From Epithemia pelagica (taxonomy: Eukaryota > Protista > Bacillariophyta), in assembly GCA_946965045.2 (NCBI GenBank), contig OX337234.1, positions 2,046,001 through 2,110,000 on the forward strand: a stretch of DNA of 64,000 nucleotides. Reading direction: 5' to 3'. The notes below the pieces were generated by a model, which saw only the letters and a program-made list of their open reading frames with translations, was not told the DNA's origin and did not search any database. The position numbers and the translations under genes are program-made. Shown here piece by piece: positions 677 to 63,687 of this stretch. Within the stretch, counting starts at the first letter, position 1, and each line of letters begins with the position of its first letter.

Positions 677-1375
677 GGCAGTTTGTTGTCCTTGTCTCTG
701 AAAATCGCTCAACCGCACCAAACCCAACCAAACACTCCCGAGTCCCGAGTCCTTAGTCCCGGATTGGTGCATAAAGCGCGTCCCATCTGCGTCCCTTTAG
801 TGCGACTTCTCCAGACGCGCAGCACGACTCAAATCGATTCTGATAAAAACTTGACTCGTGTCATTGTCATAGCTCGGGTCAGACTCGTACAATACTTTTT
901 CTGCACAATAGAAAGAAGACGCCCATTCCGAATTGTACTCTTGGACTACTACTGTTTGTGCGACCAGTTCCAACTCAACGGATCGGTACCGATTCTTGGT
1001 TTCTCCTCCAATTGCGCTCGTGGCGGGAAAAATTGATCCTGTCCAATCCATAGTATGGCCCTCGTGCCGACCGACTCTACAAGAGTTGTCTTTAGGACTG
1101 ACTCTTCTCACAAAATACCCAAGCCCCTTGTTCCTTGTTCTTTTTTGGCCAGAGAGGGGAATTGGACATTGGAATTGGAGCGACGCAGGACGAAACAGGA
1201 ACCACCACAAAAGCCAAACCAAGAAAAGCTGAAAAACCAAACGAACACACGATTGCTACACACAAATCCGAAGATTGCGTAATTTGGTGAAAAAGGTCGC
1301 GGTGCCAACTCGTTCTTCCTATTGTAGTTTCTCGTTGTCGTCGTTGCGTTATCAGTCATATACTACGGGGACACC

Positions 1376-3259
1376 ATGTTTCGATTCCAAGCACCCAATC
1401 GAGGATCGTCCTTCCTTCGAGGAGGCAGCAGTCCAACCAATTCTGGAATTTCCAGAGGAACTCGCATCCTGGGCTTGGCGTTGGCCTTTGTGACGGGCAT
1501 GGCGGTGATGCAAACCATGATGTATGCCTCGCAAGCCGCCTCGCACGGTCGGAAATCCACCACTCTGTCCTTGTACCAACACGAGATTCGACCCGTCTTG
1601 AGGAATCCATCCGATCATCATTACGGCAAGTGTCGATTTTTCATGGCCGAATCTGCCGTGGCGCCCAATTCTGGTTTGGGCATGTTTGTTGGCACGGGTT
1701 TGCTCAAGGGCGACATGGTGGGGTTCCCTGACATTTGTCTCTTTGTGACGGCACCTCCCAATCATTGGACGCATTTGCACAGTCACACGTGGGGTCGTGG
1801 CATGTACTTTGGTCAAGACGAAGGCCGAGGCACGCGGATTGCCTGTGAGGGATATGGCACTGTCTTTAATACCATGCCTCGCAGTCACATTAATGTACGC
1901 ATCCAGTCGGCCATTCAACAGACTCATTCTGGATCGACACGGTCGTTGCCGGGGGCGGGCAGTATCTCGCATCATTTTGGCGTGCATGGTGTGGCCACCG
2001 ATACGATTCCGCCGGGTAGTGAATTGACCATTGATTACTACGATTGGGATTTGGACGAGAATGATTTCAAGGGGATTCGTCGTCCCCAACGGACCTTGCC
2101 CGATTTGGAACAGAATGGATGGTGCATTGATCACATTGAAGTCCGACCATCCACCATTGCCGGGGCCGGTCGAGGTGCCTTTGTCAAACGACCCATGGCG
2201 CAGGGCAGCGTCATTGTCCCAGCTCCCTTGCAAGTCTTTGCCGATCGGGCCGACTTTCAAACGTCGCAACCCGAACAACTCTATGTGAACTATTGTTTGC
2301 AACCCGAAAACTCCAAAATGCTCTTTTTCCCCTACGGTCCTGGTGTCAATCTCATCAACCACAACCACCAAAGTCCCAATGTCGGTCTCCGATGGTCCAC
2401 CAAACCCATGCACCATGGGGAACTCCTCCGTATGAATTATACCGCCTTTTGGGAAAAGGTATGGCCTGGGTCGTTGATTTTGGAGTTTGTGGCCTTGCGC
2501 GATTTGAGTCCAGGAGAAGAATTGTTTTTGGATTATGGAGAAGGTTGGGATGCGGCCTGGAAGGCTCACGTCGAGTCCTGGAAGGCGCCCCTGGATGCCC
2601 AGGACTATGTCTACCCCCAAGATATGGATGAGACGGCTCCACTTCGCACCGTCGAGGAACAAGAGAAGGATCCCAATCCTCCCAACCTCATTACCATGTG
2701 CAATACCCAAGACTATGATCGAGAAGAAGGACATTTCCACAGGGAATGGGAAGAGTCCGGTGAGGAAGAATGGTGGTGGAACATGGCGTACGTGTTTGTA
2801 TCGACAGGACTGGAGGTTGAGGTCCGAGGCATCCTCGTGCGAACGATACACATGTCTCACAAACGGTTGCTCTTGTTTGTTTTGTAGGTATTGCCATATT
2901 TTGGATCGCCAAATGGGTGACAATGGTGCCTTTGAGTATACCGTAGCCTTGATTCTGAATCATAGCGGGGACAATGGCCGGTACACGGAACAAGATCTCG
3001 CGTACGATCCCACCGTAGCCTTCCAACAACGTTATGTGGATACCAAGGTTCCTCGCAGTGCTATTCGGTGGATTGAAAAACCCTTTCATGACGATGAACA
3101 TGTACGTTGTTACCGCTAAGGACTTGTTTTCCAGCTCTGTCCGCACTCACCATTTCATGGTTCGTTCTTTAATATTTGACACAGCTTCCCAATGCCTTTC
3201 GACACCCGATCGAATTTCCCAGTGCTCTCGTTTCCGAGGCGTGGATCGCGGAGAAGTAA
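1376..3259 (+). CDS. Tandem SET-domain protein with N-terminal signal/anchor (3 exons; introns ~2788-2887 and ~3102-3184)
   Basis: Two SET-like units: ESAVAPNSGLGMF...VATDTIPPGSELTIDY and PSTIAGAGRGAF...LINH...VALRDLSPGEELFLDYG. Hydrophobic stretch ILGLALAFVTGMAVM near the N-terminus. Last exon LPNAFRHPIEFP...AEK* ends at 3259. Confidence 0.8.
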
Positions 3260-3716: not shown

Positions 3717-6700
3717 ATGTCCTTCAACGATCGATCGCGTCACCATGGCGGCCATGGTGGATACTACGGAGATCGTGGTGGTCGTGGAGGAGGCCACCAG
3801 CCTCCTCGTCGCGACAATGATGGTGGCCACCACCAACGAGGACGTTCCGATGTTCGCGGTTTTCAACAAGGTGGTGGGTCCCGCGGTACGTACGGTATGG
3901 TTCAGCATCACGCTTCAAGACCTTCCTTTCCATTTTCCTCGAGTTCTCACATCAGAGTTTCATGTTTAAATCACTGTCATTTTCTAGGAGGTGATCGGAA
4001 CGATCGATCTCGAAGTCGTGGTCCTCCTCAGCGCGGAGGTCGGGGCAATCCTCACGAGGAACGTCTGGCTCGAATCCGTTGGGAAGAACAGGGACTCGAT
4101 GTTCAAGCCAACTTCTTCAAATTGTCATTTCAAGTCAGTGGAGTGCAAACATGGTATCAGTATCAGATTCAAATGAACAAGTATTCCCGAAAAGCAATTC
4201 GGGACAATGACGGGAATGTTGTCAAGGACGAGAGCGGGAATACCGTCTATGAGGAACCCGTCATTGGGAAGCCCCTCTTTTATGATGAGGACCTATCCGA
4301 AGAGGGAACAGAAGAGGGAAAGCGCCAACAAGCACGCAAGAATGGCTCTACGCATATCTCGCGACGTGTGCTGCGGGCACTGCAGACAGAGCATAATCTG
4401 GAGTTTGTGTCCGATGGAACCAGCATGGCATTCTCTGCTACACAACTGGAAGGATTCACTACACAAGTTGACGATCGACGACGACGTGAGGTAAACCGTC
4501 CTGAGGCTGGTGTATACGGTAAGCCGAAACGACCCGTGGTTGCTCCTTTCTATCTTGATCTGTGTCTCATAATATGTTCTGCGTTGTTTCCTATCAGGCC
4601 CAGCCGACACACGCGGTGGACTCCCAAGTACCAATCAACAACCAATCATCAAGCCCTGGAGGGTATTTCCTCCCGTTCGAGTTTTACGCCACTGTGATGA
4701 CGACGAGGACTATCAAGGCCCTCGCTCCAGCAAGTACGTTTGGTTCCAGGTGAAGATGACGGAGGTGGGGGCAGTCTCGTTCAATGTAAACAATGGCAAA
4801 ATAGAAGGCCTTGCAGATAATCAAGAACAAGCTCCCTGTCAGGCCATCAATCTGGCTGTGCATAATGCCATGCTATGGCATATGCTGGCACTACGGAAAG
4901 GCCCTTTTTTCTTCAAGGAAGACATCTACAGGCGAGACGTTGCTTTTGACCCTTTGAGCATGCCTGTGTATGGCTTGCTTCAAAATGCAAAGCTTACTCA
5001 AGATGGGTTCTGTCAGCTTGTAGCTGATCTTGGTCTAGGTAAGAATCATTACGAGATGGGACAGTGCCCACCAACCAAAAGCTATGATCTAACGAAAAAT
5101 TATACTTTACATGTAATGAACAGGATGGAAGAAACCAGAATTTGGCAGAAACGGTGACCCCATTCCGCTCTTGGAGCCCCGTCAACATAGTTTTGGTGGT
5201 CGTCTCGCCGGTATTTGGATTGAAAACCTCTCCGAACCTATTCCAGAAAATCAGCGCCAAGAAGTTCATCAAAGTCTCCAGAAAGTCACATTCCATATTC
5301 GCTATCGATGTGGGGAGCGTTGGATCAACGAGATGATGCAAAAATCAATTAGAGGGGTTGACGATAACGACCTTCGCGGAAAGGAAAAGAAAGTCCGTGG
5401 CTGGGCAAAGAAGAAACTTCCCAATCGGAGGCTTATGAAGCTGTCCAACACAGTTCCACTGGAGACCAACATTGTCTGGGCTGCGGATGATCCCAACTTG
5501 TTTTCGTTTGAATTCGAGTTTCGAAATGCACAAGGAGAACGTGAAGAAAGCCGCAACATCACAGTTGCAGAATACTTTGCAACTAGATATGACATACGTC
5601 TTAAATACCCCAAAATGCCATTGGTGAGGATCAGCAAAGAAGAATATTTCCCGGTTGAATTCCTGTTCCAGACACAAGGACCTGCTCGGAACGAAGCAAA
5701 TCCGGAACGCGTCACACAGTTCGCTCTGAAGTTCAACGACGATTTTGCTTGCCAAGATCGTATGACGGAGATCAAGCGTCTGCTGAGCGGTTCGAGCATT
5801 GCCGATCCATTGCAACAGAAGCTTCAACTTCTCAATCTGAACCTTGATACATCCCCACTGGAGCTCCGAGCGAAGGTTTTGAAAGTACCAATGCTCCGAT
5901 ATGGTAGGGAAAGAAATCGAGCCAATGAATTAGGAAGAAAGGTTGAGATATCGAATGGATCTTGGAATATGCAAGGAGCGGCATTTCAGAGACCGGCAAC
6001 CTTGCACTCTTTCGCGGTAGTCAATCTGGCTGGCGCTCGCTTTCGTCCCAACCTCCCTAATGACCTTTTCGCAGCGTTGAACCGACACGGTATTGAACGG
6101 CCGTTCTTGGGAAGCGCTGTAAATCCGTCACCATTCTGGGACCAATTGATGGTCTCCATGGATCCTGAGCGACCCATTGGTGAATGGAAGAGATGCTTCG
6201 AAGAGGCTCGCAGTCGAGCTCGAGACACTTTTTTACATGGAGCACTTCGTCGTGGCGTATGTTTCCGCACCATGGCCCTCATCGATCGAGGGGAGGAGGG
6301 ACGAAAGTCGATGGAAGTGATGGTACTCCCTCATTCGCTTGTTTCAACAAATCCTGCCCATATGCATGACCAGGGTCAATACGTCGTGATGGACTACACA
6401 CGCTTCAAGACTAATCAGCCATCTCACTTTTTGACTCTCAATGATGGAACTATTGTCAATGCCTCGTTTTTGTATCGTATCCAAGGCCAGCTGTTCCTAC
6501 TCTCTGAAGTGAGATTCAACGGAACTTCTGTGGAGATATTCACTCGTGGACAGTGGCAAAGTGTTGCTGCCAATGTGGAACATGTTTTCGTTGACCAGAA
6601 CCGCAATCCGATTCAGAATATTCAGTACCATGAGATTCAAATGACAGTTACGGTCCACGGGGAAGATCGCACCGTGGGACATCTGGTTGACGAGAATTTG

Positions 6701-8346
6701 ATTGAATGTCCGTCAATCCTATTCGTCATCTTACCAAAGAAAGCTGACTCCACACGTATGTACCATACAAGCAAATGGATGTCTTATATTGGGACGCAGG
6801 TAAACTGTAAGTATGGGTTTGCGTGCGCGCTGGTATCTCTTTCTTGAGTTTCTTGACTGATTGACGAGTTCATTGATTTTCTAGCCCAAACACTGAACAT
6901 GGAATCCTATGACCGGCAGCGGAATTCAATGCAGTATTGCTCCAATGTTGCATTGAAAATTAACTCGAAACTCGCTTCTTCATTGGATTGCGCTTGTGCC
7001 TGGTCATGGGAAGAACAATATGAAGACGGGACATCTGATATTGCCCGAAAGTGGCTGGGAGAAGTTCACACCCTTATTATTGGTTTGACCAAGGCGGCTG
7101 GTACGTCAACATTGTATTTCGTGTCCAAAAGACCATGACACTAACGACTTTGTTGCAGGTCAAGGCCAATCCTCCAAAATGGTTGTTGTTGGTACGGGAT
7201 ATCTATCTGTTGGAGGACAAACGTGCTGCTTTGAAGGACGTTACCAATCCAAATCTCCCATCATTGATCGCTCCGTTGTCCGCGATATCGCAAAGGTAGG
7301 CGTAAGAGCAGCTTGCTATTTGCTATGCAATCCTGAACCAGACTAACGGTCGTTTCGCCTTCTCTTGTTTGAAAGAATTTGACCGTACAATTTCACCGCT
7401 TCAATGGTGCTCTTCCAGAGCGAATTGTTGTAATCCGTTGCGGAGAACATGATGGGCATTTCAAAGGTAATGTCACGATTTCTTTTGATAGCACATGCTG
7501 CACAAGTCAACGCTCACTTTGGATCACTTCGTCCGAATCTCAGACATTCTTGAAAAAGAGATCAAGGGGATCCGAGAAGGCTGTGAAGCAGTCCCCACCT
7601 GCCGTCCTTTAATTACTTGCTTGGTTGCGCAGGGAGGAGGAGGAGGCCGCCACAACATTCGCCTTGTTCCAACTGACCGTTCCGTTGAACTGATTCGGAA
7701 CAACAAGAACGTGCCTTCCGGTACATGTGTGGATAGTGATAAACTTCTTGTGCCCACGAATGATGCAGTGAAGCAGCATGAGAATCAACTACGCAAAGGA
7801 GGAGTGCGGGAGGGACTCCAGCTGTACGGGTCCACCAGCAAAGTTTCAAATGACTTTTTCCTTGTCTCACAAGGTGGCCTTAAAGGAACTTCGAATGGTG
7901 TTTTCTATCGAGTGATCCTGAACGAGAACGGGATCTTTCACTCCGCCAAGGCTACACCGCTTACAGGTGACGTTCTTCAGCGACTTGTGTATTCGTTGAG
8001 TTTTATCTATGGTACGTGAAACCTGAGTTGAATAGAACGAAACTCCCGCTCCAACTTGCCGCCGTGGATTTAACCAAATTTCCGTCCTTTATTCATCCCA
8101 GGTAAAGCAACCAAGGCGCCCCGTGATTCAGCTCTGATGAGGAGCGCGGATCTGCTGGCAAATACTTTACTTGGTATGATAAGTGCCATGACTGTTGAGG
8201 ATCAAGAACAACTTTTCCCGAAACACGCTGATCCTACACTAGATGGAGCGAATATCTACGGTGGCAGCCTTCTTCCGTCCTTCGGCCCATTTGCTGCCAA
8301 TCACATTGATGTTGAAGACCCCTTTCGTCCTCATGTGCTTGCGTAG
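3717..8346 (+). CDS. AGO: Argonaute-family protein, divergent and probably non-slicing (about 9 exons)
   Basis: RGG-rich N-terminus. N-domain VQANFFKL...WYQYQI. PAZ TVAEYFATRYDIRLKYPKMPLV...YFPVEFL. L2 NGSWNM. MID LFVILPKK...MYHTSK...SQ...QYCSNVALKINSKL. PIWI RHNIRL, NVPSGTCVD, DFFLVSQGGLKGTS, LQRLVYSLSFIY. GT-AG introns (e.g. 4519-4597, 6807-6884, 7101-7158, 8012-8101) join the ORF fragments in frame where checked. Confidence 0.93.
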
Positions 8347-8746: not shown

Positions 8747-8828
8747 GCATTCGTGGCCGAGCGGTCTAAGGCGTTTGACTCAAGTTCAAATGTATTCGTA
8801 CTCGTGGGTTCGAATCCCACCGAATGCA
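8747..8828 (+). tRNA. tRNA-Leu(CAA), intact
   Basis: Acceptor stem GCATTCG/CGAATGC with discriminator A. A-box TGGCCGAGCGG. Anticodon arm TTTGA-CTCAAGT-TCAAA. Long variable arm GTA-TTCG-TAC. B-box GGTTCGAATCC. T5 run at 8836-8840. Confidence 0.97.
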
Positions 8829-8898
8829 CAAAATCTTTTTGTTATGGGGAGGCAAGTAGCGTAGTATAGGAGTCTAATTCCTCTAAAGGTACTACCCA

Positions 8899-8949
8899 GC
8901 ATTCGTGGCCGAGCGGTCTAAGGCGTTTGACTCAAGTTCAAATGTATTC
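8899..8949 (+). pseudogene. 5' part of a second tRNA-Leu(CAA), interrupted by a transposon
   Basis: Identical to 8747-8797 (GCATTCG...AATGTATTC), then switches abruptly to the element's left TIR. Confidence 0.95.
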
Positions 8950-8970
8950 GGAGTTTGCGGAAATCGACCC
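8950..8970. repeat. Left terminal inverted repeat (21 bp)
   Basis: GGAGTTTGCGGAAATCGACCC, inverted relative to 14022-14042. Confidence 0.95.
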
Positions 8971-9247: not shown

Positions 9248-9653
9248 GCCCAATCTAATCGGGTGGAGCCCAATCTAATCGGGTTGAGCCCGTTTAGATC
9301 GGGTTGAACCCGATTAGATCGGGTTGAGCCCGTTTAGATCGGTTTGAACCCGATTAGATCGGGTTGAACCCGATTAGATCGGGTTGAACCCGATTAGATC
9401 GGGTTGAACCCGATTAGATCGGGTTGAACCCGATTAGATCGGGTTGACACCGCGTTAAATCCCATAGTAATCATCATTAGATCGGGTTGAGCAACCCGAT
9501 TAGATCGGGTTGAGCCCGATTAGATCGGGTTGAGCCCGATTAGATCGGGTTGAGCCCGATTAGATCGGGTTGAGCCCGATTAGATCGGGTTGAGCCCGAT
9601 TAGATCGGGTTGAGCCCGATTAGATCGGGTTGAACCCGATTAGATCGGGTTCA
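9248..9653. repeat. Tandem array of a 20-bp palindromic unit RCCCGATTAGATCGGGTTGA (10 units, 28-bp interruption, one partial unit, 8 units)
   Basis: Directly visible. The core (AA)CCCGAT-TAG-ATCGGG(TT) is an inverted repeat with a 3-nt loop. Confidence 0.97.
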
Positions 9654-10332: not shown

Positions 10333-13300
10333 TCAAGAGAATGAAGATGGTGCCTTGTTCAAGGCTCGTTTGGGGCAGCGTCGGTCATGGGGTGGACGTC
10401 CTTTCCCTCGTTCTACGCAGTACTTCATGTACTTGACGCAACAGAACTGGGTTTGGACACGAGGTGGTGGTCCGAAGGGAGGAAAGGTGGGCATACATCT
10501 CGGGACGGATTGAAGACCACCCCAGCCATGGGGATTGCTGTTGAATGCAAAGGGGTATTGCTGTTGATCGGGGAGTGTTGTTGGCCGTTGCTGATTTTGC
10601 TTGTACGGGTTGACAGGTTGGTTTTTCTGTCTTGTTGTCGTTGTTGTTGTTGTCGATTGCAGTACCACCAACCCATTTGCTGTTGTTGCCATTGCAGGTG
10701 TGCTGTTTGCTGCATTTTGAGGCTCTTTGTGTTGTTGTTGTTGATCCTGCACTGTCGCTGCTGATTGATTTGTTGCTGCCATCGTTGTTGTTGGTAAGGC
10801 TTTGCTGTTGTTTGTAACCTTTTGCTTTTTGTTGCTGGTGTTGTTCTCATCCAAATCGTCGCTCTCTTTTTCTTCTCCCTCTCTTTCCTTTCTCTTATTG
10901 CTACTGATTGCCTGTGCTTGTGCTGTTTCTTGTTGTTGTGTCTGTTGTTGTGTTTCTTGCCGTGTCTGTTGTTGTGTTTCTGGCTGTGTCTGTGGTTGTT
11001 GTATTTTGGCTGGATTCTCCTCGCTGTCCTGTTGTTGGATTTCATCTTCGACCTCTGACTCCTCCTCTGCCAAACCCAACAATGGAATGGACGTGTCATG
11101 CGGCAACCTCTTCTTGTTGCTCGCACATTTTCGGCACTGGCATCGATCGTTGAGTGGATGCTTTGGAACTTGTTGCGTGATTTCTTTTCTCGTTTCCAGG
11201 TACTCGGAGAAAAACCGTTCTCCCGTATCTTCTGGAAGCTTCTCAACCTCTGGAAAGGGAGGACGAGAAGCTCCAGACATCGAGGCAAGTATATTGATCA
11301 TGTTTGTTTTGCATGCGTTTCCAAAACTCACCACCATTTCCCATCCTGCAGGCACCACTGAACGTTCTTCTTGAGACTTCGTCATGATTCTCATCTTGTG
11401 ACGAATTGCCCTGTTAAACTGGGCCGTGCCTGCCAAATTCAAAGCATCTGCGAGAGTTTCTCGCATGCCACAGTTGGCAAAATGCGTCAAATTGTCATGA
11501 AAGCTCTCGAGCTTACTCTCTCCTCTCAAAGGTACGTACTCCACTAGCTGGTTGCTTGATCTTGGTGATGGAGGTATCTCACGATACATTTTCTCCACGG
11601 GCAAGGGATCAGCAAGGAACTTTGCCTTCTCTTTACAGTTTTCCAGTGCTTGATGTGTTTCGGCCGTAAAAAGAGGTTGATTGGAGTGTGGATCCAATCG
11701 GCCTCGTGCTGGTGGCTTGCCAGGAGTGGAAGTGCACTTGTATTTGCACTTCCACTCCTCCAACTTGAGGACAATCGTATCGCCACCCCGAATAATCTTC
11801 CGTAAGTTCTTTGAGTACCTCTGTCGAAATGTCTTGGTTCCCATCATTTCACTGATCTCTTCGTCTGTGTATTGTTTCTTGGAGCTTGACATGGTTCCAT
11901 TTTTCAAAGAACCAACAAGTTTCTCCAAGTCTTCAGGATGGTACTCGTAGATTGCATCCAACAATTCCTTCATGGCTATCCCAAAGTCAATGTGCCGTTG
12001 TCTGAGCGTCTTGGTGATCCTCTGTATGAAATGGAAAAGGCCAAGACGGCCCTCCAAGTCATCAACCAACAACAACCAAAAATCCTTGCCACAAGGCCAT
12101 GTGTCAGAGTACATGGCCTTGGGGCAAAACCCGGTACGTCTCAGCACTTGTTCCGCAGCATGTGCAAACTCGAGTGCTGACGTGTCGTGCACTAACACTG
12201 CACAAGCAATTTCTCCTGTCTCTGTTGCCATGGTCCACATTGCAGCTGCATTGAGGCGTCTTGGATAATTTTTCACTACCTGGTGGGTGTGGTCGTGAGC
12301 AAACATGTGCTGGCATCTAACCCCTTGAATCTCTCTTGTGTTTCTCTCATTATCAGACACCATCCAGGGTTGCCACTCGGAGCTTGCTCCATCATCATAT
12401 AGCTGGCGGATTGTCTCGCCTAAAGGTGGGTAGCGAACCAGAAACTCACCATCCTTTTGCACGTAGTCTTCTGATTCTTTTCCTGTAGCAGCACAATAAG
12501 AATAGTATCTCATTGTCTTGTCTTCATAGTAGGTGTTGATTCCTTCATATAGCATCCGACTAATGTAATCCCCATTGCCATAGGTTACCATTGATGCTTC
12601 CATAATCCTCGTAGCATCTTTAGCTAGATGCGATGTTCCTCTAGCATACTTGGGTTCCACTGGGTAACACATAGCCATGTAGGGAGGCAGTCGTGCGAGC
12701 AATTCTCCATCATTCGCATAGAAGGCAGCCGAGCACCCCGCACACTTGTATCCCATAAGTATTGCATACTTTGGGGGACCAGACATGGCGAAAATGGGGA
12801 AAAGGGACTTGTTTTTTGAAAAGTTCGATCGCGTACGCTGGAGATTACCCCGGCAACGAGGACAACGCAAGTGGTGACTGGGGAAAAACAGCTCCCAATC
12901 AACAACCAGGAGTTCCTGTCCCACAATCGAGTTGTACAAAGCACTCGTGTTGTCGGCAATGGGGGGTACAGTAACGGTTATATTAGTGAAGAAAGGTTTC
13001 AAATTCTCAACACAACGCTTAGAACCAAGGCACGTGTCGGTCACATAACTCGCCAACGCATGCACAGCACGTGGGACATGCACCTCCGTAGGTACTGCTG
13101 TTACACGCATAATTACCTCAAACTTGAAATCTTCGGCTGTTGGAACATACGCGCCTTCCTCGCTACCAACGGTAGAACTTTCCGTTGCCATAGTCACACT
13201 AGTAGATTCTGTGTTTTCATTTTCAGCCCCTCTCTTTGCGTTTTTCGACGTGCAATTGGGACGAGGTCGCATGAAAACGTCCACTGCCTCCTTCGTAACA

Positions 13301-13662
13301 TTGGAGGCGGACAGTTTCTCACCACTGGTAAGTGGTTTGCGAATTGCTGCTGCATGGACAGCCTGGGCCTTTTCTGAGGCCACCACCTCTGCTCCTCTTC
13401 CATCGTTCATTCCCTTGCCCCTTGTTGTTGTGTTTTTGCTGCATCTGGGGTGGTGAGGGCGATGAGGGATGGCCATTCCTCTTGCCTTGGCCCTGCAGAT
13501 GGGGCAGTCGATATCGGACTCAAAGATGACCAAAAGGTCCATCTTTCTCCAACCTGAACGCTTCTTCCAACTCTTCTTTGGCCAACGTGAGTACTGATTT
13601 CCGTATCGTTGCGACTGTGGCCCCATGGCCTTGGCCGCTGTGAATTGTGCTGCAGAACTCAT
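10333..13662 (-). CDS. Putative DDE transposase (1,109 aa), resembling the Dada group
   Basis: Single intronless ORF inside the TIRs. Candidate catalytic motifs are FAHDHTH (D1), AMYSDTWPC (D2), RLGLFHFIQRI (position of the (C/D)xxH motif) and RGESKLESFH (E). Zinc-ligand motifs CPRC...CAGC, CPIC...HRPHHPRC and CQCRKC. Q/T-rich disordered tail. Confidence 0.85.
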   Translation of the reverse strand: MSSAAQFTAAKAMGPQSQRYGNQYSRWPKKSWKKRSGWRKMDLLVIFESDIDCPICRAKARGMAIPHRPHHPRCSKNTTTRGKGMNDGRGAEVVASEKAQAVHAAAIRKPLTSGEKLSASNVTKEAVDVFMRPRPNCTSKNAKRGAENENTESTSVTMATESSTVGSEEGAYVPTAEDFKFEVIMRVTAVPTEVHVPRAVHALASYVTDTCLGSKRCVENLKPFFTNITVTVPPIADNTSALYNSIVGQELLVVDWELFFPSHHLRCPRCRGNLQRTRSNFSKNKSLFPIFAMSGPPKYAILMGYKCAGCSAAFYANDGELLARLPPYMAMCYPVEPKYARGTSHLAKDATRIMEASMVTYGNGDYISRMLYEGINTYYEDKTMRYYSYCAATGKESEDYVQKDGEFLVRYPPLGETIRQLYDDGASSEWQPWMVSDNERNTREIQGVRCQHMFAHDHTHQVVKNYPRRLNAAAMWTMATETGEIACAVLVHDTSALEFAHAAEQVLRRTGFCPKAMYSDTWPCGKDFWLLLVDDLEGRLGLFHFIQRITKTLRQRHIDFGIAMKELLDAIYEYHPEDLEKLVGSLKNGTMSSSKKQYTDEEISEMMGTKTFRQRYSKNLRKIIRGGDTIVLKLEEWKCKYKCTSTPGKPPARGRLDPHSNQPLFTAETHQALENCKEKAKFLADPLPVEKMYREIPPSPRSSNQLVEYVPLRGESKLESFHDNLTHFANCGMRETLADALNLAGTAQFNRAIRHKMRIMTKSQEERSVVPAGWEMVVSFGNACKTNMINILASMSGASRPPFPEVEKLPEDTGERFFSEYLETRKEITQQVPKHPLNDRCQCRKCASNKKRLPHDTSIPLLGLAEEESEVEDEIQQQDSEENPAKIQQPQTQPETQQQTRQETQQQTQQQETAQAQAISSNKRKEREGEEKESDDLDENNTSNKKQKVTNNSKALPTTTMAATNQSAATVQDQQQQHKEPQNAANSTPAMATTANGLVVLQSTTTTTTTRQKNQPVNPYKQNQQRPTTLPDQQQYPFAFNSNPHGWGGLQSVPRCMPTFPPFGPPPRVQTQFCCVKYMKYCVERGKGRPPHDRRCPKRALNKAPSSFS

Positions 13663-14021
13663 GATCTCTATTTGTTATTCTAACTTATTGAAGTGTATCC
13701 TCTTTTCCAGGCTTCTGACCATGCTCAAAAGGGTCATGAGATGGTCAGAAGAGGACTTGTCGCAATGGTCGACTTGGCCATGCCATGGGCGACCGTGAAG
13801 GACCGACCGGATCGGCTGATGGAATCTTCCCTCCATGTTTTTTGTCCGTGATTCGATGGGTTCCCGGGACACGGTAAGACACTTGTAACGACATTTGTTT
13901 CCTAAGTGATTTTTTGTGTAACGACATTTCTAACCCAATCATATTGCTGCCTTTTGAAACTAACACCCCTCCAATTGTTGCGTCCCTAATCTATTGCCTA
14001 TAACCCTGATTGTGCATAAAA

Positions 14022-42341: not shown

Positions 42342-43010
42342 AGAAAGGAAGGAATCCAAAACGAAACAAAGAACGAGTGTCCACCAAACGACGATGACGA
42401 ATACGGTAGACTCGTTGGGTTCCAAGACGAGCAATCCATCGGATTCCCTTGGTGTCTCTCTGCGAGCGCAGAGGCTTGGACAGTTGTGGTGGTGGTGATG
42501 ATGAGACTCGTCGCTTTTGGTCCATGGACTCGAGCATGTCGACGACCACCAACAATAATACGCCGAACCGGCTAATCCCATTGTCACGTTTCCACATACT
42601 CGTAGCTACCTGCAGCAGATAATATAATAGCCGTATTGTCGAGTACGAGTACGAGTATACAATAGGATTCCGCCCGTACGAGCGTGGATTGAATCTTGTT
42701 GGGATGGTATTGTTTGGGGGACGGCGACACAAGCTCGATCAAATTAACTAACTTGAAAAAAGATTTAGTCCTATTTAACTGAGGGCCTATATAATCACGC
42801 GTACCGACGTATCTCGGCAAAGAAAAAGATCCGACACAACCGCTGGACAACGCAAATTTTCAAGAAATGCGTTGAAAGTGAAACATGGATGGAAAGTTGA
42901 ACCAAACAAATCAATTGACACATAAATCCACACAAACACCAGAGTTCTATCCTATCGACATCTTAAAGTATCAGCGAGTTGGCTTGGTAAAAGAGGACCT
43001 GAGAGAAATA

Positions 43011-46000
43011 ATGAGCTCAACATCATCGCTATGTTGGCCTAAGCTCATCTGCGCATCCATCGTTACTCTGGCCATCGTTGATGTAGTATTTGTAGAAGCA
43101 GTATTCGAGGACATTGTGTCCGACTATGACGACCATATGGATGGAATGTTTGCCGTCGATTCCATGCTTGATTCAAGGTTGTCGTATGTTGGACAGCTCT
43201 TTCAGGAAAGCTCGTGGCTGTCGGAACTGAAGACTGTTGATCTTGTGCAGGGCCAGATTGATTGGGTCAGATCCAATGGAGGTTTCGTCTCATCGAAAGT
43301 ACAAGTTCGACGTATTGATCCCACGGATCACGAGTCTCCCTTGGGTGTGTTTGCGGTCAAAGATATTGAACAAGGCGAACCAATCTTGTCCATTCCACGC
43401 AATTGTTTGATTACGAGCGAACAGGAAACTCCTGATTGGATCTGCGACACCTCACGCAATCTAGCCAGAGAGTTGAGATTGGGCAATGAATCCTCCTATG
43501 CACCCTACATCAACTACCTCAACAAGCAGCCTTATGGACAGTTACCGAGTATGTGGAGCGACGCTGGACAGGATTTGCTACTCGAAGTAACTGGTGGAAG
43601 CAGGCAGGAAGACGACCAAATCCTGCCGCCCTATGGTCCAGTTGGATGGTTGGATGATGAATGGCGGAATTTGTGCGATGGTGGAGATGACTTGGTGGAA
43701 CAGCACGCTTTCTTGACTGTGATTCAACGTGGTTGGCATGACATTCTCATTCCCCTCTATGACCTGCTCAATCACCGCAATGGAAAATGGCTCAACACCA
43801 TGAGCAACAGCTTTCATGACCCCAATCAGGACGTCCAAGTCTTTGCGTCAAAGTTAATTCAAGCTGGCGAACAAATCTATAGCTCGTACAGCCATTGCGA
43901 GTCTTGTGGGGGCCGCCATGAGAGCTATGGAACTCCTGAATTTGTACGAGATTATGGCTTTGTGGAGATGTATCCTCAAAGGTTTACTTTTGAAGAGCAA
44001 GGCGTCGCTTTTTCTGTGGACAGAGAGCATGAGAGCGACAATGAATTGAAGGTAATTTGGCATTCCGATGAACTCTTTTCGGATAACGAAGATGCAATCG
44101 AGTTTTTTCAAGATCAACTGCAGCGATTGGGAGACGTTTACGACCGCCGCATGAAGAACCATAATGAATACGTTCCCACCAATGAAATGGAGGTTCTCAA
44201 GAAGTTCACTGTCGCCTATATTGTGGCCATGGAACGCATGCTGGACGTTATCCGTGGTATCGATTGCGCAGTATCAGCAGACGGCGCGGAAAACTCTACA
44301 GCTTCCTGCTCTATATCTCCCAAGCGATACAGTAGCCTTGACGAAAAATACGATGAATATGATAAAAGGACTTGCGACAAGTACGTGTCGCTAGATTTCT
44401 CGTGGTACGACGATACCGAACAAATCCAATCGCACTATCAGCTCAGTTCCTATATCGAGAGCCCTGAGAACGGGAACACTTGTTTTGACTTAGGTAAGAG
44501 AACGTGACGAGGGGATGTAACTCGAAAACTACTTGACATTCGGAGTACATCTCACAGTCCAGTTTGTTTCTTCTTACTACCAAGATGACATCTATCAGAT
44601 ATGTGGAAGCTATCGTCCTCATTATCGTAAGTACGGTCCTCGATGCCTTCTCTTCAACTGCAATGACGTTTAATCACTCACGGATTCTGCATGTTAGATG
44701 AAATGGTGGTCCATTATACCGCTCGTTTTCTTCCAAAGATTCAACGGGTACTTTGGGTTGGAGGCGGTGACAGGTAGGTCCCCCCCGAGGTCCAAACGTT
44801 GGGTTTACTTTTACTTTCTTGAACTCACAACGTTTTAGCATGTTGCTCCACGAGATCATCAAGTATCCTGATTTGGAGTTTGTTCTTGGACTTGAACTCG
44901 GTACGTGCCGTTATGCGTTGAATTTGTTGTGGCGCATAAGCAACTACATTATTCTGAAACATTTTCTTGGGTACATCAGACCAAACTGTGACGAGAGGGG
45001 CGTTCAAGCACTTTGGATCCCAACCGCATTGGGACAACGAGAAGGTGCAGTGGTGGTATGGTGATGCTGCCAAGAGTCTGCTCATGCTTCCAAAATCATA
45101 CTTTGGTACCTTTGATATGGTCTTGGTGGACCTGAGTGAGACCGTCATGAGTGCGCTCGTCACCAAGGACCTGGACATCATGTCGGCACTTTCATTGCTC
45201 CTCAAGCCTGAAGGTATCTTTGTCAAGGTAAGTCAGGAAACGACACTAGTTTGTTTGGGAAGCACATTAACGTTCTCACATATTCTGGCATAGAATGAAT
45301 TGTATTTTGAGAAATTGAACCCAATCTTCAAGCATACCATGCAGATTCACTACTACGACGTTCCTGTCATTTGTAGCCAGTTCTTATGTCTTGGAAGCCA
45401 TGGAGTTGATTTTGTCAATCGCGAGTTGACGGATCACAAGGTGGAGACCAAACTGTCTTTATTGGACAACGTTGACCATGACTTTCAAATAGTTCACGAC
45501 TACTTGACCAATCCTCATGCGGAACGACACTGTACTGCAGAAGATGAAGACGGTGACGAACTTGTAGATCAGGGAAGAAGCCCAGGAATTGTCATGATTC
45601 TCGAAGCAGAAAATGTCAGTGCAAAGCTTGATTCATCCAGCAAGCTTGAAAGTCTTCTTCGACCAGCCTTGGAAGAAGAGGGCCTCTCGGTCGTCTCGAC
45701 CACAGTATCGGATCATGAGTCTGGTGCCGTGTTGGTAGTTGTATTGCAACAGGGATATGTGGTAGCCCGCTTCTGGTCGGAGCACAAATACTGCGCTTTA
45801 GATATCCATATGTGGAGCAGCTTTGAAAAGCATGACAATATCAAAAATTCTTTGGTCGCCGCTCTGGGTGGTGAGTCTCGGTTTGCGTCGTCATTCCGCA
45901 TTGTGGCTGGTGGCATGTTTGGCCTGAGCACCGGGCAAGAAGACTACCAAGCACGTGGTCCCAAGTACACCCAGGACTGCAGTGACACACCAGAGCTCAT

Positions 46001-49656: not shown

Positions 49657-52600
49657 CTAATCTTCATCCTTTTGACCGGATGTGGTCCTCGCTCTCATGG
49701 CAGCTAGGTCCTTAATACCATATCCTTTGCCGCGCCCGGATGCGGCAACTTCCTGTTTCTCTTCTGGCACAGGAGCAGGAGCTGCGGAAGCCGGCTGATT
49801 CGTTCCACGCAATGACGCAGAGGAAGCCGACGTTGATTGGACCGGTCGTGACGAGCCAGGAACCACACCCCCTGGTTGTAGTGGCTGACCACCCAAATCC
49901 TGAGTTCCAGCTTGACGCGACTGTCGCGAGGATTCACTGCCTCGCTCGCTCATATCCGTCAAGGAATCTCCCTCCTGTTTGGTAGTGGAGGTCCTCTTCT
50001 TCATAGCAGAGAGGTCTTTTGCTCCTCTTCCAAGACCAAGACCACCACCACCACCCAATTGAGGTCTGTGACCCTCGCTGCTCCCAAGACTGTCTTTCAC
50101 GAAGTGAATGGGCGTGGAAGACGACGGCGCCAGCTTGGAATGCATGAAATCCTTTATTTTGTAAAATGCACGTCCATATGGTACTAGACTCATTTCAGCG
50201 GATGCTATCATTGTTCGTTCACCTGCGGTCCTTGAGACTGTACTGCCTTGTAGATGCAGCCCTTTCGCCTGAAGCGAGGCCACATAACATCGGACGTCGA
50301 TAGGCCTTATTGATCGCTCATTCAGAGGCAGATCAATGGATGAGTCCTTCTTGTTCACTTTTGAGGGACGTCCAGAGCCAGATCCCATTGGTAGGGGACG
50401 TTTAAGCTTTCCACGATGAGTGCAGGTTTTCAGAGCGACACAACCATTGAGAACTGTTCGAGCGTATTCTTTTGCGCTGATGATCATTAGCCACACTGCA
50501 TCTTCGCTGACTTTCATGTTGGCTGCGTGAGCAGTGGTTCGGACTGTGGGATCAATCGACAGTGCTCCTGGTATACGAAGCGAGGAGTTGTTGGGACGCT
50601 TCACTTTCTGTGGAAAGGACGGGGGTCCGCCAAACGTTGGCAAATAACCTTGTTTACCCACCCGTCCAACTTCTTTGGTTTTGTTACTGGTAGACTGGGC
50701 ATCGTCACGTGTACATACTCGTATTCTATTCCTCCATGTGTGCGGTAGATGAGGCGATATTTCATGAAAAGGAACCCGTAGCCGCAAACATTGACGAAGA
50801 AGACCTTGAAGCCAAGATGCACATCAGAAGCGGAAAAAGACTGCGACAACATAGCGAACATTCGTCTTACCTTTAACAAGCTTGTTGTGAAGTTTTCGCA
50901 GTTTCTTTGTTTTTAGAAATCCATTGATGGCTGACCTAGATTTCTCAATGACGTTGGGAGTGTTACCACCATCAAATCGCATTCGCATGGAATCCCAGTA
51001 CCGCGCAAACTTTCTGTCGTAGTCGTCCACTCCGTGGACAACGGATCCTTCTGTGTATATTCGAAGCTTGGTTTGCTCAAAATCATTACTGCTTGGTGAT
51101 CCATCTGATTCCTGTTTCACATGGCTCTTGAAGCGTTTCAGAGGAAACTGTGAAAGGTACGACTCGGTCAACTTGCGCTTTCTCTGCTGAATCTCATTAG
51201 ACTTATTTTTATTCTGTTCTGGCGACTTCGCCCCATCCATCTTTTTGGCGATTATCTCATGATTTTGTTTCGATTCATCTAAGATCTTTTCTGACGCTTT
51301 GCTTGCTTCTTCCACAGCCCCCCTCGATTCTTCAATCTTCGTCTCAGTAAACGTGACATGGAGAGAACTAGTGTTCCCTTCTTCGGGTTTTGTCGGTTGA
51401 CTCGTATCCGAACCTAACTTCGTATCTGTCGGTTCTGCCTTAGTTTGTGGAACGGATTCTTTCAATTCTTGGGACGGCGCTGCTTTGTCAACTTCGCTAG
51501 GTTGGTTCGTCATTGATTCAAGCTGCTTTTGAGATTTGGCATGGGCCGTAGTTAAGGACGACGGTGCTTCGCCGCTATCGGTAGCTAATATTGATGTCGA
51601 TGTCGCAACTTCTTTCTCTCCCTTCATATCGCTAATGAGCTGATCGTTTCTCTTGGAAACTTGAGGGTTAGTTTTTCCGGTTACCACCCCAGAAGAATCT
51701 GGGATGCTCCTTTGTGCGTCTCCTGTTTCACTGAACTTTGGGACAGACTTCAACGGAGAAGTTTCATCTCCACCTGACGGCAACTGCCCAACATTGTCGC
51801 TCGATGAGTCTACCGATATTGTGCCAATCTCTTTGTGCTCTTGCGGATCTCGTGCTATGGACTTTGATTGGAAAGGTGGTCCACTCCCAGATTCTGGCAC
51901 TTCGGGCTGTTTTGATCCATCCTCTGCGCTGTCGGGATCTAACACTGATTCTGTTTCTTTTGTATCTGACGCAAGATGTTTCAGTGCTTCCTTTGTTTCA
52001 GGGGATTCGTTCGGCTTCGCCTCTGCCACAGCCAAGCTGGGGGCAATATTTACATTCGTTGTATCCGCCTTCTCAGTTGCCTGCTTCCCTGTAGGATCCG
52101 AGATCTCAGGCGCCTGTACGGATGAACCAGGGACAGCCATATTCATGTCTTCCGAATCTTTTGTTGTCTCTGGAGGACTTGATTCTTGCACCGAAGCAGT
52201 ACCTGTTAGCGTTATAGGTTTCTCCATATCTGAAACACGGCAATCCCGTATTGACTCGGAAAGGCTTGTGTCTTTCGTGACTACTTCTTTAACTTCCGAT
52301 CCGTCCGCCTCGCCGCGAGGTGGATCTGGTTGTCCTGATTCAACCTCAACGGAGGTTGAAATATGCCGTGGTCCATCTGGACTTAGTCTACTACCAAGGG
52401 CACTAGCATGCTTCTTTTCTTCCGAATGATCACTAGTACCCGAAAGATTTGGACTCCTCTCCGCCCCTGCAGTATCGCCACCGACGTCTTCATCCGGTTT
52501 ATGAATTTGGCTAGAGTCCAATCTATCTGACATTGAACTTTGGATCTCAATACCTGGAGCTAAACCAGAAGCTTGGGTTATAGCCCCACACGCTGCTCCA

Positions 52601-55600
52601 GAACCATCGTGGATATGAGGCGAAGTTGTGGTCGTTACGACAACTTCCGCTTCAGGTTTTAAGGACTTTTCCTGGTCACCAGGGGATGGCAACGCAGACT
52701 CAGCACTTTCCTTCGAAGAGAGACTTGGCTTGACAGAGGAACCCTCAGTAGTCTTTAATACGTCTTGCTCGTGTGCTTGAGAGGAATCAACATGACTCAC
52801 CTTGTCATTGTCATCGTCTTCGCCCGCCAATCTGGAAGTTATCAAACCTGCTGGTATTTCAGCACTCTTGGTCTCATCCTTCTTGGACTCGGTGTGCAGA
52901 TTACTTTCTTCTCGCGGTTTTGTTCTCTGTTGACCGGACGAGGAATCCACCTCTTCTTTTGGCAATACAATGTTGTCCTTAATTGATGCTCGGACTGAAT
53001 CCTCAGAAACATCTACGGCATCGATCTCGGCATCTTTTATCATCGCAGAGTCATCTGTTCCATGCTTCTCGACCACTCTTGATTCAGAGCCAGTGTTTGA
53101 AGTGTGAAGCTCAGCAAGTGATTCCCCTTTCTCAGTTACTTCCATTCGGGTCGAATTTCTCTTTGCTTCTCCCTCTTGAGCAGCGTTGTCCTCTGTTTTT
53201 TCACCCGCCTCAACTACTGCGTTTTTGTCGTGAGCGCTCTCTGTCGCGGCCGGCAACGTGTCCGCCTCATATTTGTTGCTATTTTCATTGCTTTCCTTTG
53301 GTGCATGTACACTGTCGACTGAAACTTGGTCTTTCGACATCTCAGGGAAAGCATTTTTTGTCGGCATCTTTGGAGGTTCGCCATCGGATAGTGGGGTGTC
53401 CATTGTGGTCGTTGGATCGCGATCCGTCTCTGTCTGTGTGCTTAACGTTGGTTCCATTTGTCCAGTTTCGTGAGAAAGTGATTTTACGGTTTCAACTGGT
53501 ATTGCTGTTGGTGTCAAAAGAGTAGTTTCTGTTGATAATTCAGTAGATTCGTCCTTTGCGGCATCTGCCTTACTCAATTCATCAGTTTTCGGAAAATCTT
53601 CTACCGTTGAATCATCAACAACAGGAACTGATTGTGCATCCTCTGAAGCGCCACATACTCGGATATTTCCCGGCTCTTGCAAGTCCGAGACGATTGCGGT
53701 CGCAGAGACCCCAACACGGGAATCGAGGGAGAGAGAACATTTGAGCGTTTCATTTTCTTCAAATGAAGCAATGTTTCCTTCATCTTCGATATCCAAATCC
53801 TCGCCAGAACGGACGACTTCGCCTTTACCTTCGATCACATCTTCGGGTTCTTCCGAACTCTTTGCTCCTCTTGCGACATCTGATATTTTCACTAGGTCTT
53901 CCATATTTTGACCTTCCTTGGCCTGGATCGGCTTAGAACTCTGCGGTACTTCATCGGGACTTCTTGGAATCTTGCTATTCCCCATCTGTCGCGACTGTTC
54001 CTGATCTGTTTGCTCTGTCAAAGATTCAACACACGTCGTCGCGCTTTCATGGTCACTTTGGACTCCAACTTTTCCCGATACAGACTCAGCGGCTAGGCCG
54101 TCTGTGTCTTCTTTCGTATTCTCCTTAACAGCATCAGAAGCACTTTCTTCCATATTCGTCCGTTTTTCATCTTTGCCTGAAGCGTCAAGTTCTTCTTCCA
54201 AGATTTCGACTGCATCATTGTCGAGAGGATGCTCTGGCTTTGTTTGTGTATCCGCCTCAACCCCATCAGATGTCACATCGTTTTCACCGCCACTTGGTAC
54301 GCCCTTCTCATCGGATTGCTTTTCTGATATTGACCCATCAACCTTCTCTGAGGAAGCGGTATCATTTTGACCAGAATCGGGAACATTTGAGAACGAAACA
54401 TCAACCGTTGCGTTGTCAGCAGACAGAGAACCACCGACGACTGTTTCTGGTTCATCCGACGCGACGCCAGCACTAGATCTCGCCAATTCCCCCTCAGATT
54501 CTCCTACAGTTGTCATTGATTTGCTCTGCTTCCCATATTCCGTAGACTTTTTCAAATCATCATGATGGACCTCGCCAAGAGGGTGAATTGGTACAGAGAC
54601 TTCCGATGAATGCGCGTCAACTTCATTGGACGGTATGGTCTCAGCATCACATAGCCGCTTTTCTTCTAGGTCGGCTTGCTCCTGAGTACCTGTATCCATC
54701 GGACCAGATATCAACATAGCTTTCGAAACATCGCTGTCTTGTGTTGGTTTATCAGCCAACGGAGACGATTTTCCTGGGTCGACAGCATTTCCAACTGAAT
54801 CCTGTTCGGACAACACAGTAGCTCTATCGGCTTCTTCTTTTGTGGCGCTACCCTCAGAAAGAACCTCATCTTTATTCAAACTTATTCTTTCTTCGGATGT
54901 CTCTGGCTTTTGACGACTATCACCGTCATGGCGTGATACGTCAACGTCTCTTTCAGTATTGTCCTCCACTTTGTCAGGAGAACTATGAACGACGATATCG
55001 CTACTTTCTACCTGGGCTTCATCAGAGTATACCACAGGCGTAGAGTTGTGTGCGTCTAGTGGCTGGATCTCGGAAGAATTCGGATCGTCCATGGAAACAT
55101 TGTCTTCCTTATCCGAACCAGCTTTGGATGCATCAGACACTCGTTCACCAGAGACATCCGACTTCTGCTTTCTTTCTTCATTTTTTTCTACGGGAGCTTC
55201 ATCGGCATCGGTTCGAACCTCCAGAGACGTCGTATTTTCCGCTTCCTCTGTATGCGTCTCTGCTTTTGGCTCCGTTTCAACATCATCGGAGTTCGGTATC
55301 GATTCAGAACTACCTAGATGTTCGCCTCCTTGTTTGGAGCTGAAGTCGTCAGCTGCCTCTTGTTCCTTTATTGGAACAGAAACACCTTGTGTCGAGCCCT
55401 CAATATGTTCGGCTGAGACTTCCTCAGAAACATCTACAGCTCTTCTAAGTCCGTCATTTGAAGTGTTTTCCTCGATTTCATCGGATCGAGCCTCACATGT
55501 CTTAATGTCCAACCCTCGGTTAGACCCTGATCCGTCCTGTCCAGGACTTTCTGCAGAGTCAAGACGATCATCAGCACCACTATCTTTATCAGAATGAATA

Positions 55601-63252: not shown

Positions 63253-63687
63253 GGGGAAGACTCGAATTCACAACAAGTGTCAATGACACGACACGAAAAA
63301 GATGGAGATCCAGTTCTCTAGTTGCTGGGCTGTCTTGCAGATATAGAGCGTCTGCTGTCTTGGCAAGAATGTTGTGTCCTCTGGTATATTATTTTCTCCG
63401 CACTATTCGTATTCCAAAAGGCCTCTTGTTGTTGTTGTTGTCGTTGTCGAAGGAATGAATCTCTTCGTGACAAAACATGGGACAGAAACCGGGTGCAGAT
63501 GACACGGCGGAGAAAGCGTTGGATCAATGGTTTACTTCCGCGCAGAAATTGCCGGCGCCAAAAGGGCGCACGGAAGCACGTGATTGGTAGAGATGATGAG
63601 CGCTCGAGAGTATGACGTATCCGCGACCTTTTCAGTCGCATTCACGTGGCGGAAGACAGACAGAAGAAACCTTAGCGGGAGTGGATT

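Follow-up and report, generated by a model that had tools for sequence, protein, structure and literature searches.

The closest described systems for the protein studied here are the Argonautes (AGOs) of model diatoms; what we take from the papers below refers to the parts of them considered here. De Riso et al. (2009; PMC2724275) list one AGO each for P. tricornutum (Pt2_47611) and T. pseudonana (Tp3_1029). Both have PAZ and PIWI domains and fall in a diatom-only clade far from other AGOs, and the divergence of their catalytic motifs is taken to impair cleavage; those parts of the account do not mention an insertion in the MID domain. In silenced P. tricornutum lines, the mRNA of a GUS transgene was lowered and de novo CG methylation was observed (De Riso et al., 2009). 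In Rogato et al. (2014; PMC4247016), the transposon small RNAs are 25-30 nt long, show a 5' U bias and lie over methylated regions; the parts considered report neither a ping-pong signature nor a PIWI protein, and they document tRNA fragments in P. tricornutum. According to a 2025 review (PMC11910954), silenced T. pseudonana lines can retain the mRNA, the RNAi effectors of diatoms have diversified, and the P. tricornutum Dicer yields 26-31-nt small RNAs from transposons under repressive or heterochromatic marks. Diatoms are reported to be without canonical miRNAs, their small RNAs deriving mostly from transposons and repeats.

Outside diatoms, the closest parallel in mode of action is the single AGO of another protist, Toxoplasma gondii (Tg-AGO), which has no catalytic triad, carries the MID residues Y-K-Q-K and an RGG tail, and binds heterochromatic small RNAs (Braun et al., 2010; PMC2877743). 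Tg-AGO differs from the protein described here in belonging to another lineage and in recruiting a separate Tudor-SN protein through its RGG tail; it takes up miRNAs too, a class reported to be missing from diatoms, and no MID insertion is mentioned in the parts of that paper considered. Within the stramenopiles, the AGO of the brown alga Ectocarpus (PMC12867755) and the AGOs of oomycetes (PMC6284064) share the N/PAZ/MID/PIWI architecture with the protein studied here, and brown algal AGOs also have a disordered N-terminal tail (PMC12867755). Unlike that protein, however, both groups keep DEDH or DDDH at the catalytic positions, the DEDD/H tetrad being needed for slicing (PMC6284064). The loss of the tetrad is thus not general to stramenopiles.

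Here we analyse an AGO gene within a 64,000-nucleotide stretch of Epithemia pelagica DNA, the whole of which we call the window. The probable absence of slicing in diatom AGOs has been in print since 2009, and the observation of it in a preliminary description of the window is a correct rediscovery. Our additions are modest and testable: a clade-wide census of the catalytic tetrad, which bears on how diatom knock-down lines are read, and a conserved insertion in the MID domain. The preliminary description mentions neither the 2009 account nor the insertion; the latter is what is added over earlier reports on diatom AGOs.

The Argonaute gene is intact and spliced

A phase-consistent model of donor and acceptor sites gives a coding sequence from 3717 to 8346 on the forward strand, with nine exons encoding 1326 amino acids and a sole stop at the last codon (Table 1). 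All eight introns are GT-AG and measure 58-102 nt. The gene is larger than the span covered by the preliminary description, which corresponds to its last third; the motifs named there all lie where they were placed, in one frame after removal of the eight introns.

Splicing could be followed in the contigs of four public runs (X1-X4), which come from one single study and none of which is recorded as RNA. Contigs of X1-X3 are colinear with the window through the predicted introns. The X4 contigs leave out seven of the eight introns (1, 2, 3, 5, 6, 7 and 8) exactly at the predicted GT..AG ends, with a short side of only 26-28 letters at the joints of introns 7 and 8. Intron 4 is flanked at both ends without being bridged, as contigs end at 6806 and restart at 6885, with 6828-6884 uncovered. 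Introns 7 and 8 are also retained in some short X4 contigs, as unspliced read-through. X4, a single run with no recorded library type, looks like a transcriptome, and on the evidence of this run the gene is very probably expressed. Other splice choices that would restore the catalytic tetrad were considered and rejected: all four tetrad positions lie inside exons with borders confirmed or flanked by X4 contigs.

Between the runs, thirteen coding variants were found, five synonymous and eight non-synonymous, the latter including a stop (Table 1); at pN/pS 0.48 (p 0.16), these 13 within-species sites carry no significant sign of purifying selection. The nonsense variant could represent either a null allele in the heterozygous state or a difference between strains. 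The open frame and the spliced contigs, set beside one nonsense allele in one run, show that the gene is intact and spliced and is not a pseudogene. The earlier view that reading frames intact across the introns argue against a pseudogene is thereby upheld, with conservation adding to the open frame and to the splicing in X4. The preliminary description had also named an unexpressed gene evolving neutrally as the finding that would undo its proposal; expression is very probable, whereas pN/pS is not significantly below 1.

Table 1. Positions of the Argonaute features within the window (aa, amino acids; clade and canonical counts refer to the rows of the tree)
Feature	Position	Strand	Observation
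Exons	3717-3885, 3988-4518, 4598-5038, 5124-6806, 6885-7100, 7159-7295, 7376-7466, 7544-8011, 8102-8346	+	open frame, GT-AG introns
RG/RGG-rich N-terminal tail, aa 1-90	3717-4088, broken by intron 1	+	4 RGG, 8 RG, 47% G+R
N domain, part matched by Pfam ArgoN	4065-4454	+	E 3.3e-4, under curated cut-off
PAZ core, likely pocket for the guide 3' end	5531-5674	+	PF02170, E 1.3e-7, above cut-off
Start of MID (ArgoMid)	5951-6037	+	E 0.0026, under cut-off
Beta-rich MID insertion, ~150 aa (aa ~757-905)	6251-6697	+	clade-wide; part predicted as a Tudor/SH3-like barrel
MID 5'-phosphate pocket	6761-6970	+	Y927 (6761), K931 (6773), Q943 (6887), N962 (6944), K966 (6956), K970 (6968)
Tetrad position 1, Thr (T1010) for Asp	7088-7090	+	Asp in 1/32 clade, 35/37 canonical
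Premature stop, C>T, codon 1034	7218	+	in a contig of unspliced run X2 only; C in X1, X3 and spliced X4
Tetrad position 2 (glutamate finger), Pro (P1047) for Glu	7257-7259	+	Glu in 10/32 clade, 30/37 canonical; gappy loop, register least certain
Tetrad position 3, Cys (C1081) for Asp	7439-7441	+	Asp in 22/32 clade; lost in 4/4 rows of the window's subclade
Tetrad position 4, Asp (D1262), allowed in slicers	8149-8151	+	H or D in 3/32 clade, 34/37 canonical
C-terminal motif and stop	8323-8346	+	His-x-x-small ending, shared with most clade rows

A long-branched clade of diatom Argonautes

Protein searches were made with the largest PIWI exon (11 matches) and with the MID-PIWI region of a relative, P0004 (46 matches), and exon 4 was searched against 1.84 billion representatives, of which the best 150 of 313 matches were examined. 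The searches returned a group of diatom proteins together with a tail of canonical AGOs. The closest named protein is Epithemia clementina ACA910_004985 (P0001), at 64% identity over the exon and 204/295 identical PIWI residues (69%). Other named members of the group come from Entomoneis, Nitzschia, Thalassionema, Thalassiothrix, Stephanocyclus, Thalassiosira, Odontella, Ditylum, Aulacoseira, Corethron and Dactyliosolen, so that all named members are diatoms, drawn from centric, araphid and raphid groups. The AGOs of P. tricornutum and T. pseudonana do not appear by name among the matches of the 11-match and 46-match searches. A homologue search limited to proteins of 2390-5000 aa gave no match and is uninformative.

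The tree was built from 69 rows, each covering 75% or more of the MID-PIWI columns and having residues at the two end anchors; fragments were dropped, five representatives were swapped for fuller cluster members, and the Entomoneis paludosa protein P0192 was lost through misalignment. A quick maximum-likelihood search separates 32 diatom-type from 37 canonical rows (SH-aLRT 100, stem 1.47). The window protein groups with P0001 (support 95) on a terminal branch of 0.28, compared with a median of 0.6. The phylogeny called for in the preliminary description thus places it in a long-branched diatom AGO clade, in which no row has a full tetrad (0/32, against 29/37 canonical rows). P0001, its closest named relative, has the same architecture with the MID insertion and the tetrad A-A-S-D; P0192 likewise shares architecture and insertion, with A, S and S at positions 1, 3 and 4. 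These two proteins are annotated merely as hypothetical or Piwi-domain proteins.

The window protein does not rank with the PIWI clade: AGO-clade PDB chains reach 197 bits (E about 1e-57), whereas the best PIWI-clade chain scores 61.5 bits (E 3e-16 or weaker). Nematode WAGO/HRDE-1/NRDE-3 and Drosophila Piwi are non-slicing nuclear Argonautes that act in guide-directed chromatin silencing. With AGO-clade chains so far ahead, the window protein does not belong to their clades, and they offer a comparison of mode of action only.

A metagenome scan yielded 46 loci, three of them canonical AGOs. None of the other 43 combines Asp, Asp and His/Asp at positions 1, 3 and 4, about 30 of them being readable at all three; the loci were not de-duplicated, and several probably repeat proteins already counted. 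The first Asp is kept in four loci (L001, L005, L013 and L039), and one locus (L027) is uncovered at this position. The peptide patterns of the scan, like the protein queries, were built from the diatom clade, so that a canonical diatom AGO would be under-sampled. Within this scope, the loss of the tetrad is not private to the window and is common to every member of the diatom clade examined. The census suggests that this loss is old and clade-wide: positions 4 and 1 were probably lost early in diatoms, and in the simplest reading the second Asp was lost later, in the subclade that holds Epithemia and Entomoneis. The AGOs of De Riso et al. (2009) differ in this last respect, as the window's subclade has lost the second Asp as well; their orthology to the window protein is presumed.

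Divergence of the slicer tetrad

The four slicer positions of the window protein read T-P-C-D, compared with D-E-D-H/D in canonical AGOs. Positions 1-3 were placed by aligning human AGO2 chains with a profile built from 11 relatives; position 4 was placed from the multiple alignment only, as the AGO2 alignment ends before D1262. The replacements of the first Asp (in GLTKAA), of the glutamate-finger Glu (in QSKSPII) and of the second Asp by Cys (in IRCGEHDGHF), reported in the preliminary description, all fall on the corresponding columns, the glutamate finger with the least certain register. Correct splicing and alignment do not restore a DEDX tetrad.

Of the proposal that three of four slicer residues are lost, the three losses stand, but the fourth Asp is not a kept residue of the site. 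Although it is common to the window protein and P0001, it is absent from P0002, P0003, P0005 and P0192. With His or Asp at that column in so few clade rows (Table 1), and Ala or Ser in the close relatives, this Asp is not a preserved remnant of the catalytic site, as far as the alignment reaches. A further position-4 Asp, in P0033, was set aside as coming from an aberrant C-terminus, the fuller cluster member having Lys.

Because both core aspartates are gone, target cleavage by the window protein is very unlikely, and taken by itself the absence of slicing is the part of our reading in which we place high confidence. The earlier proposal of a non-cleaving, small-RNA-binding Argonaute is consistent with this absence of the tetrad and with the conserved MID and PAZ residues described below.

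Domain architecture and guide-binding residues

Along the exon frames, the Pfam matches follow the order ArgoN, PAZ, ArgoMid, Piwi; those to PAZ and to one piece of Piwi lie above the curated cut-offs. These matches and the full-length relatives place N, PAZ, MID and PIWI in order in one protein. Human AGO2 is matched by the profile at E 2.6e-57, and human AGO1-3 are matched by a PAZ-to-MID model in Foldseek. The PAZ domain and the RGG N-terminus were said to be retained, and both are: the conserved PAZ columns Y/F/Y/L/P/P/E are all kept, and RG-rich tails comparable to the window's are found in P0001, P0002, P0004, P0008 and P0010.

All six MID pocket residues, which include the Y-x3-K, Q and K noted before, are present in the window protein, and the set is complete in 29/32 clade rows and 29/37 canonical rows. 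In canonical AGOs the C-terminus reaches the 5'-phosphate pocket. Five residues past the fourth catalytic position (column 1267), an Arg stands in 36/37 canonical rows but in only 2/32 clade rows, and is Thr in the window protein. The description of the guide 5'-phosphate pocket as kept therefore holds for its MID residues and fails for this PIWI-side Arg. Similar shifts are seen in Lys at column 1124 (35/37 canonical rows versus 0/32 in the clade), in Arg at column 1247 (32/37 versus 0/32) and in Ser at column 1253 (34/37 versus 0/32, Arg replacing it in 31/32 clade rows). We take the human AGO2 residues matching columns 1124, 1247, 1253 and 1267 to be ones that touch the guide backbone or its 5' end. 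Since several canonical guide-channel residues are altered clade-wide, the guide-binding surface is not fully canonical and guide binding may be atypical across the clade. Judging from the residues kept, the window Argonaute very probably does bind a guide.

Two further features of the PIWI domain were observed. A glycine run at 7609-7700 (forward strand) stands in place of the canonical PIWI basic motif in the window protein and in P0001. Many clade members, such as P0001, P0002, P0008 and P0010, carry a short Cys-rich PIWI insert with 4-6 Cys, a possible metal binder, which is mostly deleted in the window protein.

A conserved beta-rich insertion in the MID domain

The span between the anchors W661 and Y927 measures 266 aa in the window protein and 214-293 aa in the 32 clade proteins, compared with 96-114 aa in 14 of 15 canonical AGOs and 47 aa in the remaining one. 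The inserted segment is conserved, with a His in 38/39 rows and a D-P-F motif in about three quarters of them; its identity to the window is 56/144 in P0001 and 33/124 in P0192. In one alignment (A5), its end is misplaced in the last 20 residues of the first row.

AlphaFold2 predicts a beta-rich domain, with mean pLDDT of 84 and 86 in two models. In structure searches with this domain, the best matches are barrels of the Tudor, chromo-barrel, PWWP, SH3 and KOW types. The VIA comparisons give Z 5.5 for TDRD3 (rmsd 2.7, 60 aa), Z 4.6 for 53BP1 (rmsd 1.9, 48 aa) and Z 6.2 for SGF29 (rmsd 5.0, 74 aa); Tudor-family chains as a whole score Z 4.5-6.2, all under Z 8, below which a match may reflect just a common arrangement. 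The top Foldseek matches, to interdigitated double Tudor domains, are weak (best E 0.07), and none reaches E 0.001. The absence of a strong structural match does not amount to a new fold. As the aligned ranges reach both ends of the insertion, its first and last strands may together form a barrel, into which a second subdomain is nested.

Sequence searches point less clearly to the Tudor family. Pfam gives no match for the window's insertion; Tudor_4 is matched by one of 20 insertion members at E 0.02, among seven scattered single matches and thus at chance level; and in the PDB a profile of the insertion matches none of the Tudor chains at E 10 or better. Conserved aromatic columns fall at aa 760, 761, 841, 845, 858 and 869, with none between 762 and 800, where the cage residues of a Tudor domain usually lie; the first hairpin has no conserved aromatic at the expected site of a cage for methyl-lysine or methyl-arginine. 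In the ESM Atlas, the insertion inside its long exon returns Piwi clusters only (0.81-0.84, a lead at best), and the isolated insertion of one relative gave no usable match. As a lead from the models, the insertion could be an SH3/Tudor-like interaction module, with chromatin, a methylated RG tail or nucleic acid as candidate ligands. We found no literature on a MID insertion in diatom Argonautes; Grypioti et al. (2024, New Phytologist) may already describe clades, tetrads and the insertion.

Proposed role and alternative explanations

On balance we favour, with some reserve, the view that this gene encodes the intact and likely main Argonaute of a raphid pennate diatom, which would bind 5'-phosphorylated small RNAs and silence transposons and repeats without cutting. 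Silencing by the binding of small RNAs, not by cutting, is likely because the RNA-cutting residues are absent, as they are in the diatom relatives examined. A part in chromatin or transposon silencing, put forward in the preliminary description, agrees with published work on the small RNAs of diatoms. For the window protein, this role is carried over from P. tricornutum and assumes orthology to its AGO. The guide would be anchored at its 5' end by MID and at its 3' end by PAZ, the guides being, as in P. tricornutum, Dicer-made 25-31-nt transposon small RNAs. Once loaded, the Argonaute would base-pair with transcripts, either nascent or mature. Its RG tail, inactive PIWI domain and inserted beta domain would serve to recruit chromatin or DNA methylation enzymes and perhaps translational repressors as well. 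An old, clade-wide loss of the tetrad would account for two features of RNAi knock-down in diatoms, namely that the mRNA can be spared and that DNA methylation accompanies the knock-down.

The same anatomy would also serve a non-slicing AGO that acts mainly in the cytoplasm, repressing translation or promoting decay through partners, a view compatible in part with silencing at chromatin. It recalls Tg-AGO, whose RGG tail is needed for polysome association (PMC2877743), and fits the persistence of mRNA in silenced T. pseudonana lines (PMC11910954). We nevertheless consider it unlikely as the main mode, as diatoms are reported to be without canonical miRNAs, and transposon and repeat small RNAs, overlying methylated DNA, dominate. 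That the window protein is a specialised non-slicing paralogue, binding for example tRNA fragments, was raised in the preliminary description; such a paralogue beside a canonical slicer AGO in the same genome is improbable on the present evidence. The window's subclade has indeed gone further in loss than the remaining diatom AGOs, its second Asp being gone; P. tricornutum contains tRNA fragments (PMC4247016), and diatom RNAi effectors are said to have diversified (PMC11910954). Yet no named species occurs twice on separate branches, the named rows group roughly by taxonomy, and each model diatom has a single AGO in the list of De Riso et al. (2009; PMC2724275). Of ten canonical-type matches checked, the named ones are from fungi or an arachnid, five are nameless and one has a transcript id only; the 64-kb window holds no second AGO-like stretch. 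With the tetrad lost in all clade members examined, the protein looks like an ordinary diatom AGO, and the binding of tRNA fragments in particular found no specific support. Other AGO types may exist in diatoms, as the effectors are said to have diversified; our searches, seeded with this clade, are biased towards it.

Decay of the gene under relaxed selection would account for the nonsense allele in the contigs of one of the four runs and for a pN/pS not significantly below 1 over 13 sites. It is very improbable given the eight introns that splice to an open frame, the intact allele in the spliced run, the short terminal branch, the 69% PIWI identity to P0001, and the retention of the MID pocket and C-terminal motif. 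Equally hard to credit is continued slicing, either by a rearranged metal site (the Glu, His and Asp right after Cys1081, with Asp1262) or by a recruited nuclease. The acidic residues near position 3 and the Asp at position 4 could be read in its favour, and the fall of target mRNA in silenced P. tricornutum lines (De Riso et al., 2009; PMC2724275) could be explained by slicing too. However, both core aspartates are missing, and with Ala or Ser at position 4 in close relatives there is no conserved alternative site.

An extension of the favoured reading, silencing without cutting, concerns the insertion. Early diatoms might have traded slicing for a built-in reader, losing the catalytic site and gaining inside MID a Tudor-like domain that would dock the guide-loaded AGO on methylated histones, or on methylated RG tails or nascent RNA. 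We regard this as speculative and rather doubtful. If true, a single protein would stand in for a small-RNA chromatin-targeting complex, and RNA silencing in a major algal group would proceed without any slicer. The conserved insertion in any case offers a testable handle on the way in which a diatom AGO that does not slice could reach chromatin.

Neighbouring features in the window

A tRNA-Leu(CAA) gene lies at 8747-8829 (forward strand), 400 bp downstream of the AGO stop, and a truncated copy of its first 52 bases follows at 8899-8950 (forward strand), the region beyond being repetitive in other runs. A link between the Argonaute and this adjoining tRNA gene was considered and rejected as unsupported. 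A tandem array with a 20-bp, partly palindromic unit (19.4 copies, 87% matches) occupies 9258-9651; some 700 bp separate it from the end of a long frame that resembles a transposon, and it could be a subterminal repeat. That frame, at 10333-13674 (reverse strand), encodes 1113 aa with Cys/His clusters and no good Pfam match, and by eye is a putative DNA transposon gene.

Among the 22 long frames scanned, none matches the Dicer RNase III or RdRP families. Two long open frames, at 50824-56637 (1937 aa) and 59479-63267 (1262 aa), both on the reverse strand, have no Pfam match at E 0.001. SET-domain frames are found at 42882-44507 (forward strand) and, just upstream of the AGO gene, at 1328-2887 (forward strand). 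The X4 contig that carries the AGO 5' exons reaches about 500 bases upstream of 3300, possibly into the 3' end of this upstream SET frame.
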